A DNA stretch of 64,000 nucleotides from Buchnera aphidicola (Meitanaphis flavogallis) (GTDB lineage Bacteria > Pseudomonadota > Gammaproteobacteria > Enterobacterales > Enterobacteriaceae), in the NCBI GenBank assembly GCA_039830035.1, contig CP140038.1, positions 193,397 through 257,396 of the forward strand. Reading direction: 5' to 3'. The notes beneath the pieces are model-generated. The model ran no database searches and had not been told where the DNA came from. It saw nothing but the letters and a program-made list of their open reading frames with translations. Positions 6,588-49,314 of this stretch are shown piece by piece. The translations under genes were made by a program, and so were the position numbers. How positions within the stretch are numbered: position 1 is the first letter of the stretch; each line of letters starts with the position of its first letter.

Positions 6588-6944
6588 TGGAGCTGGCGGG
6601 ATTCGAACCCGCGTCCAAAATTTTTACGACTTCAGTACTACATGCTTAGTCTATTATATTTAATTAATCTATAAACGTATAGACACATTATAAATTTTTT
6701 CTTATTATATTTTTTTTTAACGACTAAAATTTATAAGTATAATTTTAATACGCGATCTCTTATTTTTTGATCCTGTTTTCTTTTTAAGAGAAAAAAGAAT
6801 CAGGAAGCTTTAGTTTAACTTATTAAGCTGCTAAAGCGTAGTTGTTATTTTTTGCTACTATATTTTACGGCTTTTATCGAGGCAAACCGTTCCTCGGCAT
6901 GCACTTTAGTTTTCAATAATTTTGTCGAATCCAAAATCAGCCCC
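6588..6944 (-). ncRNA. ssrA: tmRNA (SsrA), one-piece
   Basis: The minus-strand 5' end is GGGGCTGATTTTGGATTCGAC...GTGCATGCCGAGG. The 3' end is GGACGCGGGTTCGAATCCCGCCAGCTCCA. The tag reading frame GCA AAA AAT AAC AAC TAC GCT TTA GCA GCT TAA TAA encodes AKNNNYALAA. Confidence 0.95.
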
Positions 6945-42362: not shown

Positions 42363-43442
42363 CTAATTGACCTTAAATATGAAAGAACATCCTAGCAACA
42401 TAAACACTAAAGATATAATCCAAAATCTTACTGCTATTTTTGGTTCTGGGCAACCTTTTAATTCGTAGTGATGATGAATAGGTGTCATTTTGAATATTCT
42501 TTTTTTCTTTAACTTAAAGTATGTAACTTGAATTATGACTGATATAGTTTCAAATATAAAAATTCCACTCATAATAAAAAATATTATTTCTTGGTGTAGT
42601 AGTATTGCTATTATTCCTATCACCCCTCCTAAAGGTAGAGACCCTACATCACCCATAAATATTTGTGCTGGATAGGCATTAAACCATAAAAATCCTAATC
42701 CTGATCCTATAACGGCTGAGCAAAGAATAGTTAATTCTGCAATACTAGGAATATATACAATATTAAAATGTGTTGAATGGTGTAAATTTCCAGAAATAAA
42801 TGATAGTAGATATAATCCTATAGTTATTAAGATGACAGGAACAATAGCTAACCCATCTAATCCGTCTGTTAAATTTACAGCGTTACTAAAACCTATCAAG
42901 ATAATATATGACAAAAATATATGTATTATACCTATGTTTATAACAATATTTTTTTGGATAGGGCATATTAATTGAATTATAAAATTGTTTTTATTGTTAT
43001 AATAAATTAAAATAATAACAAGAATAGTAATTATAGATAAAAAAAATAATTTCCATTGAGGTCGTAAACCTGTAGACGTGTTAAAGTAAATTTTTTTATA
43101 ATCATCTATGAATCCTACTATGCCAAATCCTATTAAAATCATTAGTGCATACCATATGTATATGTTTGATAAATTAGACCATAATAAAGTAGATATAATG
43201 ATAGAAGATAATATAAGTATTCCTCCCATAGTAGGTGTATATTTTTTGTTAATATGTATTTTAGGTCCATTACTTCGAATAGTTTGATACATTTGGTGTT
43301 TTTTTAAAAATTTGATTAGGTATGATCCTACTATTAGAGAAAAAAATAGTGACGTTAGTAAACTAATAATAGAACGATAAATTAAATATGATGTCTTATC
43401 AAAATTTGTGTGAAAATAGTATTTAATAATGAATTCAATCAT
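42363..43442 (-). CDS. mraY: Phospho-N-acetylmuramoyl-pentapeptide transferase
   Basis: MIEFIIKYY...TPTMGGILIL...NAVNLTDGLDGLA...GDVGSLPLGG motifs. ATG 43442 has GAGGAA 8 nt upstream. The track starts at TTG 43457. Confidence 0.94.
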   Translation of the reverse strand: MIEFIIKYYFHTNFDKTSYLIYRSIISLLTSLFFSLIVGSYLIKFLKKHQMYQTIRSNGPKIHINKKYTPTMGGILILSSIIISTLLWSNLSNIYIWYALMILIGFGIVGFIDDYKKIYFNTSTGLRPQWKLFFLSIITILVIILIYYNNKNNFIIQLICPIQKNIVINIGIIHIFLSYIILIGFSNAVNLTDGLDGLAIVPVILITIGLYLLSFISGNLHHSTHFNIVYIPSIAELTILCSAVIGSGLGFLWFNAYPAQIFMGDVGSLPLGGVIGIIAILLHQEIIFFIMSGIFIFETISVIIQVTYFKLKKKRIFKMTPIHHHYELKGCPEPKIAVRFWIISLVFMLLGCSFIFKVN

Positions 43443-44811
43443 AATTACATTCCTCAACTAATTTTTTTACTATTCTTTCTAGATTTTCGCTTCTAGATCC
43501 TTTAATTAAAATTGTAATTTTTTCATACATAAAAATTTTTTTAGTTAAATCTTTAATTAGTGTATTAATATTAGTGTAATGGTTTCCTTTTTTACTATTA
43601 ATACTGATAGATTTACTTAATTTTCCAATGCTCATAACTTCGTTTATATCAGATATGTAAATGACATTACCAATTATTTTATGATACATAGTACTCATTT
43701 TTCCTAATTCAGACATATCACCAGATACAAAAATTTTATATCCAGGCATGTTTTCTAACACTTTAATTGCTACAATCATTGATGCAACATTAGCATTGTA
43801 AGTATCGTTTATAATAGTTTTATGTTGGCTTAGTGTGATAGTTTCTAATCTACCTGAAAGTATTGGAATTTTAGATAATCCGAGTTGAATGCATTGAAGT
43901 GGAATGTTTAATGTTATTGCTATAGCGGCTGCAGCTAGAGCATTAGAAATATTGTGAAATCCAAGCAAAGGCAAATTAACATTTATAACTCCATTCGGAG
44001 AATGTAGAATGAAGGATGAGCCTGTATTATCAATAACGATATTGCTTGCAAAGAATTGACTTTTTTTTTTTATTGAAAACCAAATAATGTTTTGGCTGTT
44101 TATGTTTTTTTTCCATCTTGACCAATGATGACTATCAGCATTAAATATAGCTGTACCAGTTTTAGGTAATGTACAAAGAATTTCTTGTTTTGATTTAGAG
44201 ATTCCTAATAAAGATTTAAATCCATCTAAATGCGAATAATAAATGTTGTTTATTAATGCAATATTAGGATTTGTTAATTTTGTTGCATATAAAATTTCTT
44301 TAGGATGATTAGCTCCTATTTCAATAACAGCATATTTATATGATAGATCAAGATTTAGTAGAGTTAATGGTACTCCAATATTATTGTTAAAATTTTTAAA
44401 GGTAGATAAAGTTTTTCCATAACATTGCAAGATAGAAGTAGTAATTTCTTTTACAGATGTTTTTCCAGAAGATCCAGTTAATGCTATAATACTAGCATTA
44501 CTTTGTTGTCTAATCCAAAATGCTATATTTCCTAGTGCTAAAGTAGTATTTTGCACAACTATTTGTGGTAGCTTGATATCAAGTTTTTTTTCTAATACTA
44601 CTGCTGTAGCTCCTTTTTTCATTGCTGCATAAACGAAATTATGTGCATCGAAATTTTTTCCGATCAAAGCAATAAATAAACATCCTGGAGTAATTGTTCT
44701 TGAATCAGTACTTATAGCATGAAAAATTAAGTTATTTATTTTTACATTATTTTTGTTAAAAAAATAACCTTTTGTGATACGACATATTTGATAAAAAGAT
44801 ATTGGGATCAT
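43435..44811 (-). CDS. murF: UDP-N-acetylmuramoyl-tripeptide--D-alanyl-D-alanine ligase
   Basis: 458 aa ORF with the ALTGSSGKTSVKE P-loop. It is Mur-ligase colinear and contains an in-frame A11 tract (44061-44071). Confidence 0.93.
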   Translation of the reverse strand: MIPISFYQICRITKGYFFNKNNVKINNLIFHAISTDSRTITPGCLFIALIGKNFDAHNFVYAAMKKGATAVVLEKKLDIKLPQIVVQNTTLALGNIAFWIRQQSNASIIALTGSSGKTSVKEITTSILQCYGKTLSTFKNFNNNIGVPLTLLNLDLSYKYAVIEIGANHPKEILYATKLTNPNIALINNIYYSHLDGFKSLLGISKSKQEILCTLPKTGTAIFNADSHHWSRWKKNINSQNIIWFSIKKKSQFFASNIVIDNTGSSFILHSPNGVINVNLPLLGFHNISNALAAAAIAITLNIPLQCIQLGLSKIPILSGRLETITLSQHKTIINDTYNANVASMIVAIKVLENMPGYKIFVSGDMSELGKMSTMYHKIIGNVIYISDINEVMSIGKLSKSISINSKKGNHYTNINTLIKDLTKKIFMYEKITILIKGSRSENLERIVKKLVEECNYD

Positions 44812-44813
44812 AT

Positions 44814-46297
44814 TTATTTTTCCAATAGTTTTTTAATTGTTTCATAGTCAGAAAAATAATAAGTTTTATTTTTTATTATTTGATATTTTTCATGACCTTT
44901 TCCTAATACAACTACACAGTCATTGATGTTAGCATTCATTATGGCAAATTTGATTGCTTGTTTTCGATCCAATATAATATGTATATTTTTTTTATTTTGA
45001 ATGTTTTGTGTGATATCTTTTATAATTTCTTTTGGATTCTCGTTTCTGGGATTGTCATTAGTTAGAACGATTTTATTAGCAATTTTTTCAGAAATCTTTC
45101 CCATTAGGGATCTCTTTAATTTGTCTCTATTTCCTCCGCATCCAAATACACACCATACATTGTGATGATATATTTTACGAATAGTTTGTAATACATTTTT
45201 AAAAGCGTCTTCATTATGTGCATAATCAATGATAATGTTTGGTTTATTTGGAATTTTAAGAGATTGCATTCTTCCAGGAACGGCTATTATATATTCGCAT
45301 ACGTCTATCAAGCAAGATAGTGAAAACCCCAAGTTTAATAATGCCACTAAAGCTAGTAGTAAATTAGTAACGTTAAAGTTTCCAATTAATTGGCTTTTTA
45401 ACAATCCTTTTCCCCAACTAGATTTAAAGTAAATGTAAGTATAATTTGTATTATATATTATACGATATGCGTGTACCCATCGTTTAAATAATGAGTAATT
45501 AAAATTTTTATTTATACTTACGACGATAGTTCTTTTTTTAGATAATTTTTTTGTCCATAGTTTTCCAATATGATTATCTATATTAATTATGAATGTTTTA
45601 ATTTTGTTTTTAGAAAAAAAAGTCCATTTTGCTTTAATATAGTTTTCTATAGTTTTGTGATAGTCTAAGTGGTCTGATGTAATGTTTGTCAAAATTGCCA
45701 TAGAAAAATTTAAATTTGACACTCTATGTTGTATGATTCCATGCGAAGATATTTCCATAGCAATTGTTTTTATATCGTTTATTAACATTTCTTTTAAGAA
45801 TTTTTGTATATTTATAGGAGAATCAGTTGTATTTACAGATGGTTTTAGATCGTTGTAAGTTCCATTCCCTAGACTTCCCATAATTCCTATTCTTTGGTTT
45901 AATAAGTAATTCCATTGAGCAATAATATGAGTCACAGTACTTTTTCCATTAGTTCCAGTGACTCCAATAAGTGTTAATTCTTCATTTACTTCATAATATC
46001 TATTGGATATTTTGGATAAATTTTTAGATAATTTTAAAAAATAAATTACTGGAATGTGTTTATTTTTATATGTTATATGTCCATGATATTCTTTTTTTTT
46101 GTTTCGCAAAGAATAGCTATTGCTCCATTATCAATAGCTTTTTTTATAAATTGTCGTCCATGAAATATATTTCCTTGTAGTGCGCAGAATAAGTTTCCTG
46201 TAGTAACTTTTCGACTATCTGATGCTATTCCAGTTATATTATATGATTGTGTTATATTCATCCAAGGTTGTAATAGGGTTTGTAGGTTATGTTTCAT
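44814..46297 (-). pseudogene. murE: UDP-N-acetylmuramoyl-L-alanyl-D-glutamate--2,6-diaminopimelate ligase, split by a frameshift at an A9 tract (possibly rescued by slippage)
   Basis: Two track ORFs (46073-46297 and 44814-46109) overlap by 37 nt in different frames. The first, MKHNLQTLLQPWM...IASDSRKVTTGNLFCALQG...AIAILCETKKK, matches the MurE N-terminus. The second carries GVTGTNGKST, DNPRNE and the rest. The break is at A9 (46092-46100). Confidence 0.9.
46092..46100 (-). repeat. A9 (sense-strand) homopolymer at the murE frameshift site
   Basis: Nine T on the plus strand between c46091 and g46101. One extra A gives ETKKKEYHGHITYKNKHIPVIYF. Confidence 0.9.
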
Positions 46298-47729
46298 TTT
46301 TACTCCAAAATTTTGTGATGTATTTAATATATAAATAAATTATCAGGTTGAATATTAATAATTTTTAATGCAAAACTCATAATTGTACTAAATACTGGAG
46401 CTGAAATAGTTCCTCCATAGTATTGTCCTGCTCGTGGATCATTAATCATCACAAGCAAAGAAAATTGTGGATTGCTAATTGGAGCAAGTCCTACTGCATA
46501 TGATACGTATCTATTTACGTATTTTCCGTTTGAATTGACTTTTTTTGCAGTACCCGTCTTTACAGCAACTTTATAGCCTTTAATGGCTGCTTTTACTCCT
46601 ACGCCTCCTGGCTGAGTTACTGATTCGAGCATGTTTAATACGATTTTTACTAAAGATTTTGAAAATATTCGTTTTTCGTTGTTTTTGTTATTAGTTTTAA
46701 TAATAGATAATGGTTTGTATAATCCATATCTACCCATAATTGTGTATACGTTAACCAATTGTAGTGGTGTAACCATCAATCCATATCCAAAAGAAAATGT
46801 TACTTTATCTAAGTTAGACCAATGTTTTTTTTTGGGGTAAATTCCTTTTTTTTCTCCTATCAATCCTGAATTTGTCGATTTTCCTAAGCCAAATCTAGAA
46901 TAAATATCAATTAATTCAGATTCTGACATAGATAGTGCTATTTTAGATACACCTGTATTGCTTGATTTTTTCAAAATATCGGTAACTGATAATTGTCTGT
47001 TATATGAAACATCTTTTATTACGTGTTTATCTATTATAAAAGGTGTTGTGTCAATAATAGATTTTGGAGTTATTATTTTTTTTTGCAATGCTTTCATAAT
47101 TACCATTGGTTTAACTGTTGATCCAGGCTCAAATACGTCAGTCACGGCTCTGTTACGAATTAAATCCATAGATACTTTTTTTAAATTATTTGGATTATAT
47201 GTAGGGCTATTGACCATAGCTAGGATTTCTCCAGTTTTAATATTTGTTAAAATAGCCGTTCCAGATTGAGCTTTATGAAAACTAACAGCATGACTTAATT
47301 CGCGATATATAATCGTTTGTAATCTTATGTCTATACTAAGATTTATATTGCGTGGCGCATTTTTTTTAATTAATGAAACATTTTCAATAATGTTTCCAAA
47401 CTTGTCGGTTCTAATTTTTCTTTTACCTGGAGCTCCTTGAAGTATTTTGTTAAAACTCTTTTCTATTCCTTCGATGCCTATTCCATCTGTGTTGGTGAAT
47501 CCAATTAATTGCGAAACTATTTTTCCAGAAGGGTAGTATCGCTTAAAATCTTCAACAATATATACACCTGGTAAGTTTAATTTTTTTATGTATTCTCCAA
47601 TTTCTGGACTAACTTTTCGTGCTAGATATGTAAAACGATTGTTTTTAAAATGATTAATTTTATATATAATTTTTTCTAGAGGAGTGGATAGTACTTTCGA
47701 TAATGCTTTCCACTTTGCATTTATAACTA

Positions 47730-47739
47730 TTTTTTTTTT
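47730..47739 (-). repeat. A10 (sense-strand) homopolymer at the second ftsI frameshift site
   Basis: Ten T on the plus strand. As written, the middle frame ends ...TCA AAA AAA AAA TAG. One extra A continues as ATA GTT ATA AAT GCA AAG TGG. Confidence 0.9.
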
Positions 47740-47988
47740 GAAAAAAATATTTTTGGATCAATACAAATGTTATTCGTAGGTATACTTAGAGCTAATATAT
47801 TTCCTGATCTATCCTTAATAGTTCCTCTTGAATTTGTTTCTACTTGTATTCTTGATGATCTTAAATCACTTTCTTTAATTAGTTGCTTAGTTTTAAATAA
47901 TTGTAATATAGTTATTTTAAGTAAAATTATGATGATAGAAATAGTAATTATACTAAGTAGTGTGATAAGTCGATGATTGAAATAACAG

Positions 47989-47998
47989 TTTTTTTTTT
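47989..47998 (-). repeat. A10 (sense-strand) homopolymer at the first ftsI frameshift site
   Basis: Ten T on the plus strand. The start frame reads CTA AAA AAA AAA CTG and stops 12 codons later. One fewer A reads LKKNCYFNHRLITLL, which includes the transmembrane helix. Confidence 0.9.
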
Positions 47999-48066
47999 AG
48001 ATAACTAAATGGAATGTTGTTGAAAAAATATTTCATGAATTTGTAAATTTCCTATTGTTTCAGTAA

Positions 48067-48381
48067 TTATTGTGAAAAAATATTTTCTTCTAATGGGTTA
48101 ATATAGATCATATTTAATTTTTCTATAGCATTTTTTTCAATTTTTCTATGGGAGGATAATAAGTTTCTTTCTAAAATTAAATTATTCCACTCTATTTCTG
48201 CTTTCTTTTGAATAATATTTAATCGTTCTCCTTGCGCAATTAGTAATCTTGTTTTATGAACTATAGTAACAATTAATATTGAAAAAACTGTAATTATTAC
48301 AAGTAAAATTAATACTTGTTTGTGGATTTTTATAACGTCGTTAAAAATTATTTTAGGTAAATTATAAATGTCATCATTCAT
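48067..48381 (-). CDS. ftsL: Cell division protein FtsL
   Basis: 104 aa ORF with a single transmembrane helix followed by a coiled-coil-like region. It sits between rsmH and ftsI. Confidence 0.85.
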   Translation of the reverse strand: MNDDIYNLPKIIFNDVIKIHKQVLILLVIITVFSILIVTIVHKTRLLIAQGERLNIIQKKAEIEWNNLILERNLLSSHRKIEKNAIEKLNMIYINPLEENIFSQ

Positions 48382-49314
48382 CTATATTTTTTCCGATGTT
48401 CTTAAAATTGCACTACGTGATTTCAGATTGTTTTTAATTTCTTTTTTAGTTGGTATAATTTTATTAATAATTTTTAATGTTGTTTTTTTTAGATTTCTTA
48501 ATTGTATTTCATTAATAGCAATTCCCATAGGAATTAAAGGTGTATTGCTGTTTTTTATAAAAAAATTTTTAACTATACGATCTTCTAATGAATGAAAACT
48601 AATTATTACGAGTCGACCTCCAGAATTTAATAATGTTAACGCATATTTTAAAACTTTCTTAAGTTCGATTAATTCTCGGTTAATATGTATTCTGATAGCT
48701 TGAAAAGTTCTTGTAGCAGAGTGTTTTTTTCTTCTTGGAACAATATTTTTTACGAGATCAGCTAATTCTATGGTTTGAACAATTGGTTTAATTTTTCTTT
48801 GTCTTATGATTTGATTAGCTATTTTTTTTGCAAAACGTTCCTCCCCAAATTCATATAGTACGTTTGTAATTGATTTAATATTGGCTTTCATTAACCATTG
48901 CGATGCTGTTATTCCTATTTTTGGATTCATACGCATATCCAGTGGTCCGTTTAATAAAAAAGAAAATCCTCGATTAGAATTACCAATTTGTATAGATGAT
49001 ACTCCTAAATCTAATAATATTCCATCGACTTTTTTTGTTATATTTTTTTCTTGAAAATGTCGTAAAGCGTTAGAGAAATTATCTGAAATAAAATAGAATC
49101 TATGATCTTGGATTGTAGATGCTATATTGATAGAAAATGGATCTTTATCAATAGCATATAATTTTCCATTTTTGTTTAAATTCTTTAATATTTCTTTTGA
49201 ATGACCTCCGCATCCAAATGTACAATCAATATAAATTCCATTTTTTTTAATATTTAACGATGCAATAGTTTCTTCTTTTAGAACAGGAATATGAGTTAAA
49301 TGTATATTATTCAT
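48382..49314 (-). CDS. rsmH: 16S rRNA (cytosine1402-N4)-methyltransferase
   Basis: 310 aa ORF with HIPVLKEE, DCTFGCGGHS, DLGVSS and SFHSLEDRIVK motifs. Confidence 0.94.
   Translation of the reverse strand: MNNIHLTHIPVLKEETIASLNIKKNGIYIDCTFGCGGHSKEILKNLNKNGKLYAIDKDPFSINIASTIQDHRFYFISDNFSNALRHFQEKNITKKVDGILLDLGVSSIQIGNSNRGFSFLLNGPLDMRMNPKIGITASQWLMKANIKSITNVLYEFGEERFAKKIANQIIRQRKIKPIVQTIELADLVKNIVPRRKKHSATRTFQAIRIHINRELIELKKVLKYALTLLNSGGRLVIISFHSLEDRIVKNFFIKNSNTPLIPMGIAINEIQLRNLKKTTLKIINKIIPTKKEIKNNLKSRSAILRTSEKI

Follow-up and report, generated by a model that had tools for sequence, protein, structure and literature searches.

The subject of this analysis is the murE gene of the Buchnera aphidicola symbiont of Meitanaphis flavogallis (BMf), which encodes the UDP-N-acetylmuramoyl-L-alanyl-D-glutamate:meso-diaminopimelate (UDP-MurNAc-L-Ala-D-Glu:meso-DAP) ligase and lies on the minus strand of CP140038, of which a 64-kb stretch (the window) was analysed. 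The gene is divided by one frameshift at a run of nine adenines (A9); this frameshift is real, is fixed in the genomic consensus and is common to related symbiont lineages. Comparison of the available sequences suggests that we are probably dealing with a fixed and tolerated lesion that is rescued by slippage at the A9 run, and that murE is not dead.

Layout of murE and reality of the A9 frameshift

The murE locus (44814..46297, minus strand) is colinear with Escherichia coli MurE and with the NCBIfam MurE models. Its upstream open reading frame (ORF1; 46073..46297, minus strand; 74 codons; product MKHNL...AILCETKKKNIMDI*) comprises MurE residues 1-69, i.e. most of domain 1, and covers positions 2-69 of the MurE model NF001123. 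The downstream frame (ORF2; 44814..46109, minus strand; 431 codons counted from a TTG; product LRNKKKEYHGH...GTNGKST...DNPR...LLEK*) comprises residues ~67-494, i.e. the end of domain 1, the ATP-binding domain 2 with its P-loop and domain 3, and covers model positions 65-490. The original prediction had taken the two frames for the N terminus of MurE and the remainder with the P-loop, and the model matches bear this out, including for ORF1, which is homologous to MurE.

The three-domain architecture of the Mur ligases is represented by PF01225 on ORF1 (homologous ORF) and by PF08245 and PF02875 on ORF2. Both the P-loop GTNGKST, of the form GxxGK(T/S), and a DNPR motif, present as LTNDNPRNE, are found in ORF2; the DNPR motif is associated with DAP specificity in MurE. 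Domain 1 of E. coli MurE carries the binding site for the UDP moiety of the substrate. ORF2 alone scores 450 bits with TIGR01085, for which the cut-off is 257, whereas with the equivalog model NF001123 the 520 bits of ORF2 and the 58 of ORF1 are, taken together, borderline with respect to the cut-off of 586.

As had been claimed, and as the translations confirm, the two ORFs overlap by 37 nt in different frames, ORF2 being in the -1 frame relative to ORF1. The minus-strand sequence around the run reads ...ATT CTT TGC GAA ACA AAA AAA AAG AAT ATC ATG GAC ATA TAA, in which the A-run (46092..46100; T9 on the plus strand) is exactly nine bases long. Past the run, ORF1 continues for five out-of-frame codons (NIMDI) and ends with the TAA at 46073-46075. 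A switch of frame is possible only in the stop-free stretch 46076-46127, and the homology to MurE changes frame within the KKK of the A-run, which is, in agreement with the original prediction, the sole colinear junction (ETKKK|EYHGH). Addition of one A (A10), or removal of two (A7), fuses ORF1 and ORF2 into a protein of 494 aa (...CETKKKEYHGH...; junction region TKKKEYHGHITY) that aligns end-to-end with E. coli MurE (7b6o residues 5-492; E = 1.4e-123) and is gap-free at the junction. In the frame of ORF1 the tract also presents the heptamer A_AAA_AAG (46091..46097, minus strand), a possible site for a -1 ribosomal slip that would lead to the same ETKKK-EYHGH product. The TTG at 46107..46109 (minus strand) is the sole canonical in-frame start of ORF2 before the P-loop, and it is not conserved.

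With 40 A or T runs of at least nine bases in the window, the A9 run is as such unremarkable. The only split genes within the window are murE and ftsI. The flanking murF, mraY, ftsW, murG, murC and ddlB genes, which had been predicted to be intact, are full length, as are murD, ftsQ, ftsA and ftsZ.

The BMf genome was published together with 15 sister genomes (BMC Biol 2024) and was assembled with SPAdes from short Illumina NextSeq reads (PMC11188193); that paper makes no mention of murE, frameshifts or pseudogenes. Homopolymers being error-prone, the true tract might have been A10 and the gene intact. We regard this explanation as having a negligible probability. A 36.6-kb contig (X2), obtained in a separate run and study with a different assembler at a depth of 42, covers 43000-49000 and differs from the window by four single-nucleotide polymorphisms in 6 kb, with no indel at the murE run; given these four differences, X2 stems from a separate isolate of the species, and its A9 rules out a sequencing or assembly error. 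The identical out-of-frame A9 recurs in at least seven further assemblies of related symbionts, i.e. those of Kaburagia rhusicola (L005, L013), the Kaburagia-type X4-X6, a third lineage with ~92% identity (X3) and the symbionts of Floraphis (L010, L015); A10 was not seen in these independent data. That the split genes are all cell-wall genes, despite the 40 long runs in the window, likewise argues against an error of assembly. In what follows the Kaburagia symbionts are referred to as BKre and BKrr, and those of Floraphis as BFm and BFc.

The frameshift is evolutionarily old and has persisted without decay of the gene. A neighbour-joining tree built from six gene segments (murE, two segments of murF, ftsI, ftsL and mraY) did not resolve the position of Floraphis (bootstrap ≤59%), and because Floraphis is left unplaced, the tree is compatible both with a single origin of the A9 shift and with separate origins in Floraphis and in Meitanaphis/Kaburagia. 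Searches of genome contigs with ORF2 returned only distant MurE sequences (31-38% identity), and the relatives were taken from the protein database and from exact-protein look-ups. The index of a further run (X1) lists 100% of the sampled words of 45600-46600; on 43000-49000 this run gave only spurious contig pieces of 20-25 nt, and the match was not reproduced.

Constraint on the two parts of murE

Ratios of nonsynonymous to synonymous divergence (dN/dS) were estimated pairwise from codon alignments by the method of Nei and Gojobori. Between BMf and BKre, both of which carry the shift, ORF2 has a dN/dS of 0.155 (44 nonsynonymous to 61 synonymous differences; P = 1e-17 versus neutrality) at a dS of ~0.28, and the 76 codons directly 3' of the run have a dN/dS of 0.068. 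For the same pair the values are 0.15-0.17 for the intact murF and 0.19-0.21 for the intact mraY; ORF2 is under purifying selection as strong as that on its intact neighbours, and no further stop or indel was found in its ~1.3 kb. Because this constraint extends across a divergence at which the shift is present in both partners, the ORF2 frame is translated. The pairs formed by the symbionts of S. chinensis (BSc) and N. ibofushi (BNi) and by BFm and BFc have 2-12 differences in 7 kb and are too similar for a test of constraint after N-terminal loss or frameshift, respectively. At the other end of the gene, the symbiont of Kaburagia r. ensigallis (L005, 4293-4353) has lost the murE stop, such that the frame extends by 19 codons into the start of murF (450 aa versus 431).

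The picture for ORF1 (66 codons compared) is less clear-cut, with dN/dS values, from small counts, of 0.5-1.3 overall and of ~0.5 in comparisons with X3. Its ATG, length and stop are kept in all the carriers (BMf, Kaburagia, X3 and Floraphis), and it has changed by ~0.11 per site compared with a neutral expectation of ~0.23-0.25. In simulations of neutral evolution that took the local synonymous divergence as calibration, the probability of its being open in three lineages is P = 0.0007-0.02, and alignment columns without variation among relatives are spared by its differences (3/14, P = 0.022). ORF1 is thus still not free to drift, though it is clearly less constrained than ORF2 in the BMf/Kaburagia/X3 group.

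A number of our results weigh against the rescue of a full-length MurE. Between BMf and BKre, the dN/dS of ORF1 is ~1.2 (17 nonsynonymous to 4 synonymous differences), which is indistinguishable from 1 and differs from that of ORF2 (Fisher P = 0.0015); such faster evolution of ORF1 is not predicted if both halves are equally needed. The N-terminal ~104 residues of MurE have been lost in the symbionts of S. chinensis, N. ibofushi and Melaphis rhois, in which the remaining 384-392 codons are open, and domain 1 may be dispensable and losing importance in the clade. Further, the peptidoglycan genes of the clade are clearly error-tolerant, as they would also look in early erosion, and the stimulators of programmed ribosomal frameshifting were not found around A_AAA_AAG.

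Several of these points would fit with murE being a young pseudogene, i.e. with peptidoglycan synthesis being lost in gall-aphid Buchnera and the ORFs having not yet decayed. The pathway has indeed been lost in Buchnera of other subfamilies (PMC9116674; PMC11188193), and for each of ftsI, murE, murF and mraY there are several lineages of the clade with a broken copy, the 5' third of murE being lost in three; the near-neutral ratio of ORF1 between BMf and BKre is also as this explanation would have it. The strength of the constraint on ORF2, equal to that on intact neighbours in lineages that both carry the shift, is not what a pseudogene would show, however, and a second lesion is absent from the 1.5 kb in all of the at least five carrier genomes. 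With ORF1 remaining open against the neutral expectation (P ≤ 0.02) and the remaining pathway genes in the window being full length, we consider decay of murE to be very unlikely.

Entry into the downstream frame and the proposed route of rescue

The question of how ribosomes reach ORF2 is informed by differences among the carriers. The TTG at 46109 is present in BMf and BKre, in which a GGAG lies 13 nt upstream of it, a poor spacing. In X3 the TTG is replaced by TTA, directly followed by a TGA stop, and in Floraphis a TGA lies directly 5' of the run and there is no ATG, GTG or TTG before the P-loop. Because X3 and Floraphis have no start before the P-loop, ribosomes can reach their ORF2 only by way of ORF1, at the tract; most simply, the same would apply to ORF2 in the window.

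The main biological rival to slippage is that ORF2 is expressed alone, either from the TTG or by re-initiation after ORF1, to give a MurE without domain 1, with ORF1 being a decaying remnant or a mere translated leader that delivers ribosomes. Consistent with this, the TTG of BMf and BKre is preceded by a GGAG, and ORF1 is relaxed (dN/dS 0.5-1.3) compared with the sequence right after the run (0.07). Domain-1-less forms of MurE, beginning at or just before the P-loop, occur in the symbionts of S. chinensis, N. ibofushi and Melaphis rhois, and the branch leading to that of S. chinensis shows no extra nonsynonymous change compared with its intact sister (dN ~0.10 in both). The loss of the TTG in X3 and the lack of any ATG, GTG or TTG in Floraphis speak against independent expression, as does the retention in ORF1 of its start, length, stop position and conserved MurE motif columns. 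The break, moreover, lies inside domain 1 and not at a domain boundary, and domain 1 has its role in binding the UDP part of the substrate in the E. coli enzyme. On balance, we assign a small but appreciable probability to independent expression of ORF2.

A more far-reaching possibility, which we hold to be improbable, is that the Buchnera of the Melaphidina are shedding the UDP-binding domain 1 of MurE and that a domain-1-less or two-piece MurE is the working enzyme. What suggests it is that three lineages have deleted domain 1 while domains 2-3 have been kept as an open, apparently constrained ORF. The A9 shift would then uncouple a near-neutral domain 1, and the chief reason for ORF1 to remain open would be the delivery of ribosomes to the tract. 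If correct, this would imply either that the nucleotide substrate is recognised in a changed way or that the ligase core has taken on a new role.

The spacer that replaces the N-terminal part of murE in the S. chinensis symbiont (L011, 2724-3001), where the N-terminal ~104 codons are gone as they are also in L014 and L012, has a structural feature of its own, i.e. a perfect 24-nt inverted repeat (2783-2806 and 2871-2894) enclosing a 64-nt loop.

Returning to slippage at the A9 run, which we favour, the course of expression would be as follows. Translation would start at the ATG of ORF1. Slippage of RNA polymerase on the T9 template would add one A in part of the transcripts, giving an A10 mRNA, and a -1 slip of tRNA-Lys on A_AAA_AAG, which would yield the identical protein, is a possible contributor. 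In a fraction of expression events the correct frame would thereby be restored at the tract, yielding full-length MurE (...CETKKKEYHGH...), and unshifted events would stop six codons on, at the TAA at 46073-46075. The outcome would be a supply of MurE that is reduced, yet enough for the residual peptidoglycan synthesis of the symbiont. Insertion of one A by RNA polymerase is probably the main route, and a -1 ribosomal slip may make at most an unstimulated contribution.

Reported work on Buchnera transcription is of interest here. Corrected transcripts make up 12-50% for frameshifted cell-wall genes in Buchnera, according to the summary of Tamas 2008 in PMC5009743, and 151 of 157 transcript insertions in Buchnera lie in homopolymer A/T runs, with 80% of transcription insertions being of a single nucleotide (PMC5574713). 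Conserved frameshifts without gene decay are also on record, as cited from Wernegreen 2010 in PMC3017870.

With respect to the ribosome, the phase of the A_AAA_AAG heptamer (ACA AAA AAA AAG AAT) is conserved in BMf, BKre/BKrr and BFm. A Shine-Dalgarno (SD)-like stimulator ~10 nt from the heptamer was not found, the nearest upstream GGAG (46126..46123) being 25 nt away, and neither was a downstream stem-loop or pseudoknot, since the 62 nt analysed have a minimum free energy of -2.4 kcal/mol (z = +0.36) with no conserved fold in BKre or BFm. A stimulated, programmed -1 frameshift was rejected because neither the upstream SD-like element nor the downstream hairpin is present. The window also contains a transfer-messenger RNA (tmRNA) gene (6588-6944, minus strand; tag AKNNNYALAA); tmRNA can rescue ribosomes stalled on frameshifted or truncated messages.

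Homopolymer frameshifts in the clade and in known systems

The frameshift site corresponds to a Lys-rich loop of domain 1, the length of which varies among orthologues; products differing in their number of Lys residues should therefore be tolerated. The original prediction had pointed to orthologues as a place to look for an in-frame A-run or a Lys-Lys-Lys at this position, and such sequences are indeed found. The symbiont of Nurudea shiraii has an in-frame A10 (ETKKKELHG), those of M. elongallis (BMe) and S. peitan (BSp) have an interrupted tract that is in frame (ETKQIKYHG and ETKQKYHG, respectively), and Aphidinae Buchnera have CETKKKDKHG. In the Buchnera of Aphis aurantii, one genome has an intact murE of 506 aa (...SETTKKKKHGE...; P0137), whereas a sibling genome has murE in two pieces of 75 and 431 aa, with the break at the homologous KKKK (P0136/P0097). 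The murE tract is a recurrent frameshift hot spot, and most likely the ancestral state was an in-frame A10 from which one A was lost in the lineage of the window.

Other cell-wall genes of the clade are affected in a similar manner. In the window, ftsI (minus strand) has two shifts, the first at an A10 (47989-47998) after MKYFFNNIPFSYLKKK, where one base fewer is needed, and the second at a T7-C-A10 (47730-47739), where one base more is needed; full-length FtsI would thus require two independent slips. Between BMf and Kaburagia, the dN/dS is 0.092 for the 84 codons between the shifts and 0.08 for the C-terminal part, so that selection still acts on all three pieces of ftsI. Of 10 taxa, 8 carry the second ftsI shift. 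The mraY gene, intact in the window, is split at a poly(T) in three relatives (L006, 5925-5990, T11; L008, 6215-6280, T9; L011, 5915-5980, T9). The Nurudea symbionts L007 and L009 have a separate murE shift at an A10 in codons ~32-36, near residue 35, with a dN/dS of ~0.12 on both sides; dS for this symbiont pair is ~0.7-1.4, and the value of 0.12 applies at a dS of ~1.4. The breaks in ftsI, murF and mraY are all in A or T runs, and their confinement to homopolymers, with the flanking coding sequence conserved, is the same signature as in the cases of Tamas 2008 and Wernegreen 2010, as these are described in PMC3017870.

The murF tract (44061-44071; T11 on the plus strand) is of particular note with respect to the speed at which such runs change. 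In the window it is A11 and in frame, whereas in X2 it is one base shorter (A10) and murF is split; it is A11 in one and A10 in the other of two Kaburagia subspecies, and a further six gall-aphid Buchnera have an out-of-frame tract of A9 or A10. The length of the murF tract flips on very short timescales. These rapid changes, together with the split and intact murE alleles at the same site in Aphis aurantii Buchnera, raise the possibility of rescue at the level of DNA, in which replication slippage in the highly polyploid Buchnera would keep, within every cell or host, a minority of A10 genome copies that supply MurE, in the manner of phase-variable contingency loci. We see only a slim chance of this, since the consensus is A9 in two BMf isolates, at least four Kaburagia-type assemblies, X3 and two Floraphis symbionts, and is A10 in none, although these are assembler contigs that report the consensus only and are blind to minority alleles.

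How such genes are treated matters for metabolic reconstruction. Frameshifted genes are usually dismissed as pseudogenes in automated annotation and in comparative work; for a whole clade of Buchnera, this would wrongly strip the inferred metabolism of murE and ftsI and, in relatives, of murF and mraY. In a 2022 study from which frameshifted coding sequences were removed, Buchnera of the Aphidini were scored as being without murC, murE and murF, yet they build cell walls, and rescue by slippage was not discussed (PMC9116674). Such rescue could explain the discrepancy, the murE of Aphis aurantii Buchnera being split at exactly the same site. The 11 genomes of 10 taxa, with several tracts and with states that flip between isolates, form a well-controlled natural series, which shows that cell-wall genes retain frameshifts at homopolymers over long periods while purifying selection acts on them.

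Of the systems with which the BMf murE may be compared, the closest are the cell-wall genes of Buchnera and the genes of Blochmannia of the type described by Tamas 2008, as summarised in PMC5009743 and PMC3017870, with which it shares the organism group, the functional class and the nature of the lesion, i.e. a single-base indel in an A-run of at least nine in an otherwise intact ORF. It differs from those cases in its host lineage (Eriosomatinae, gall aphids of the Fordini), and it is absent from the genome paper (PMC11188193). Whereas, according to the same summaries, slippage was measured in those cases, for the BMf murE we infer it, and the upstream part of the BMf gene is, unlike in those cases, visibly less constrained than the downstream part. 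As with the ancient homopolymer frameshifts of Blochmannia (Wernegreen, Kauppinen & Degnan 2010 MBE, as cited in PMC3017870), the shift is conserved between diverged lineages, namely BMf, Kaburagia and X3 (dS ~0.28) as well as Floraphis; as in those cases, too, the gene is otherwise undegraded and purifying selection acts on coding sequence, in the BMf murE on that downstream of the run.

The murE tract also invites comparison with -1 frameshifting in dnaX, with which it has in common an identical A_AAA_AAG in the zero frame, a -1 slip on which would lead into the correct continuation of MurE. The upstream SD-like stimulator and the downstream hairpin of dnaX were not found at murE, and the roles of the two shifts also differ, in that dnaX is intact and its shift adds a shorter second product, whereas that in murE would repair a broken gene. 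The toggling of the murF tract length between close isolates resembles the behaviour of phase-variable contingency loci; in contrast, all carriers have the same fixed A9 in murE, and an obligate, clonal and vertically inherited symbiont would have no obvious benefit from an on/off switch. Overall, the BMf murE is a new and well-supported example of an established phenomenon, and is confirmatory rather than surprising.

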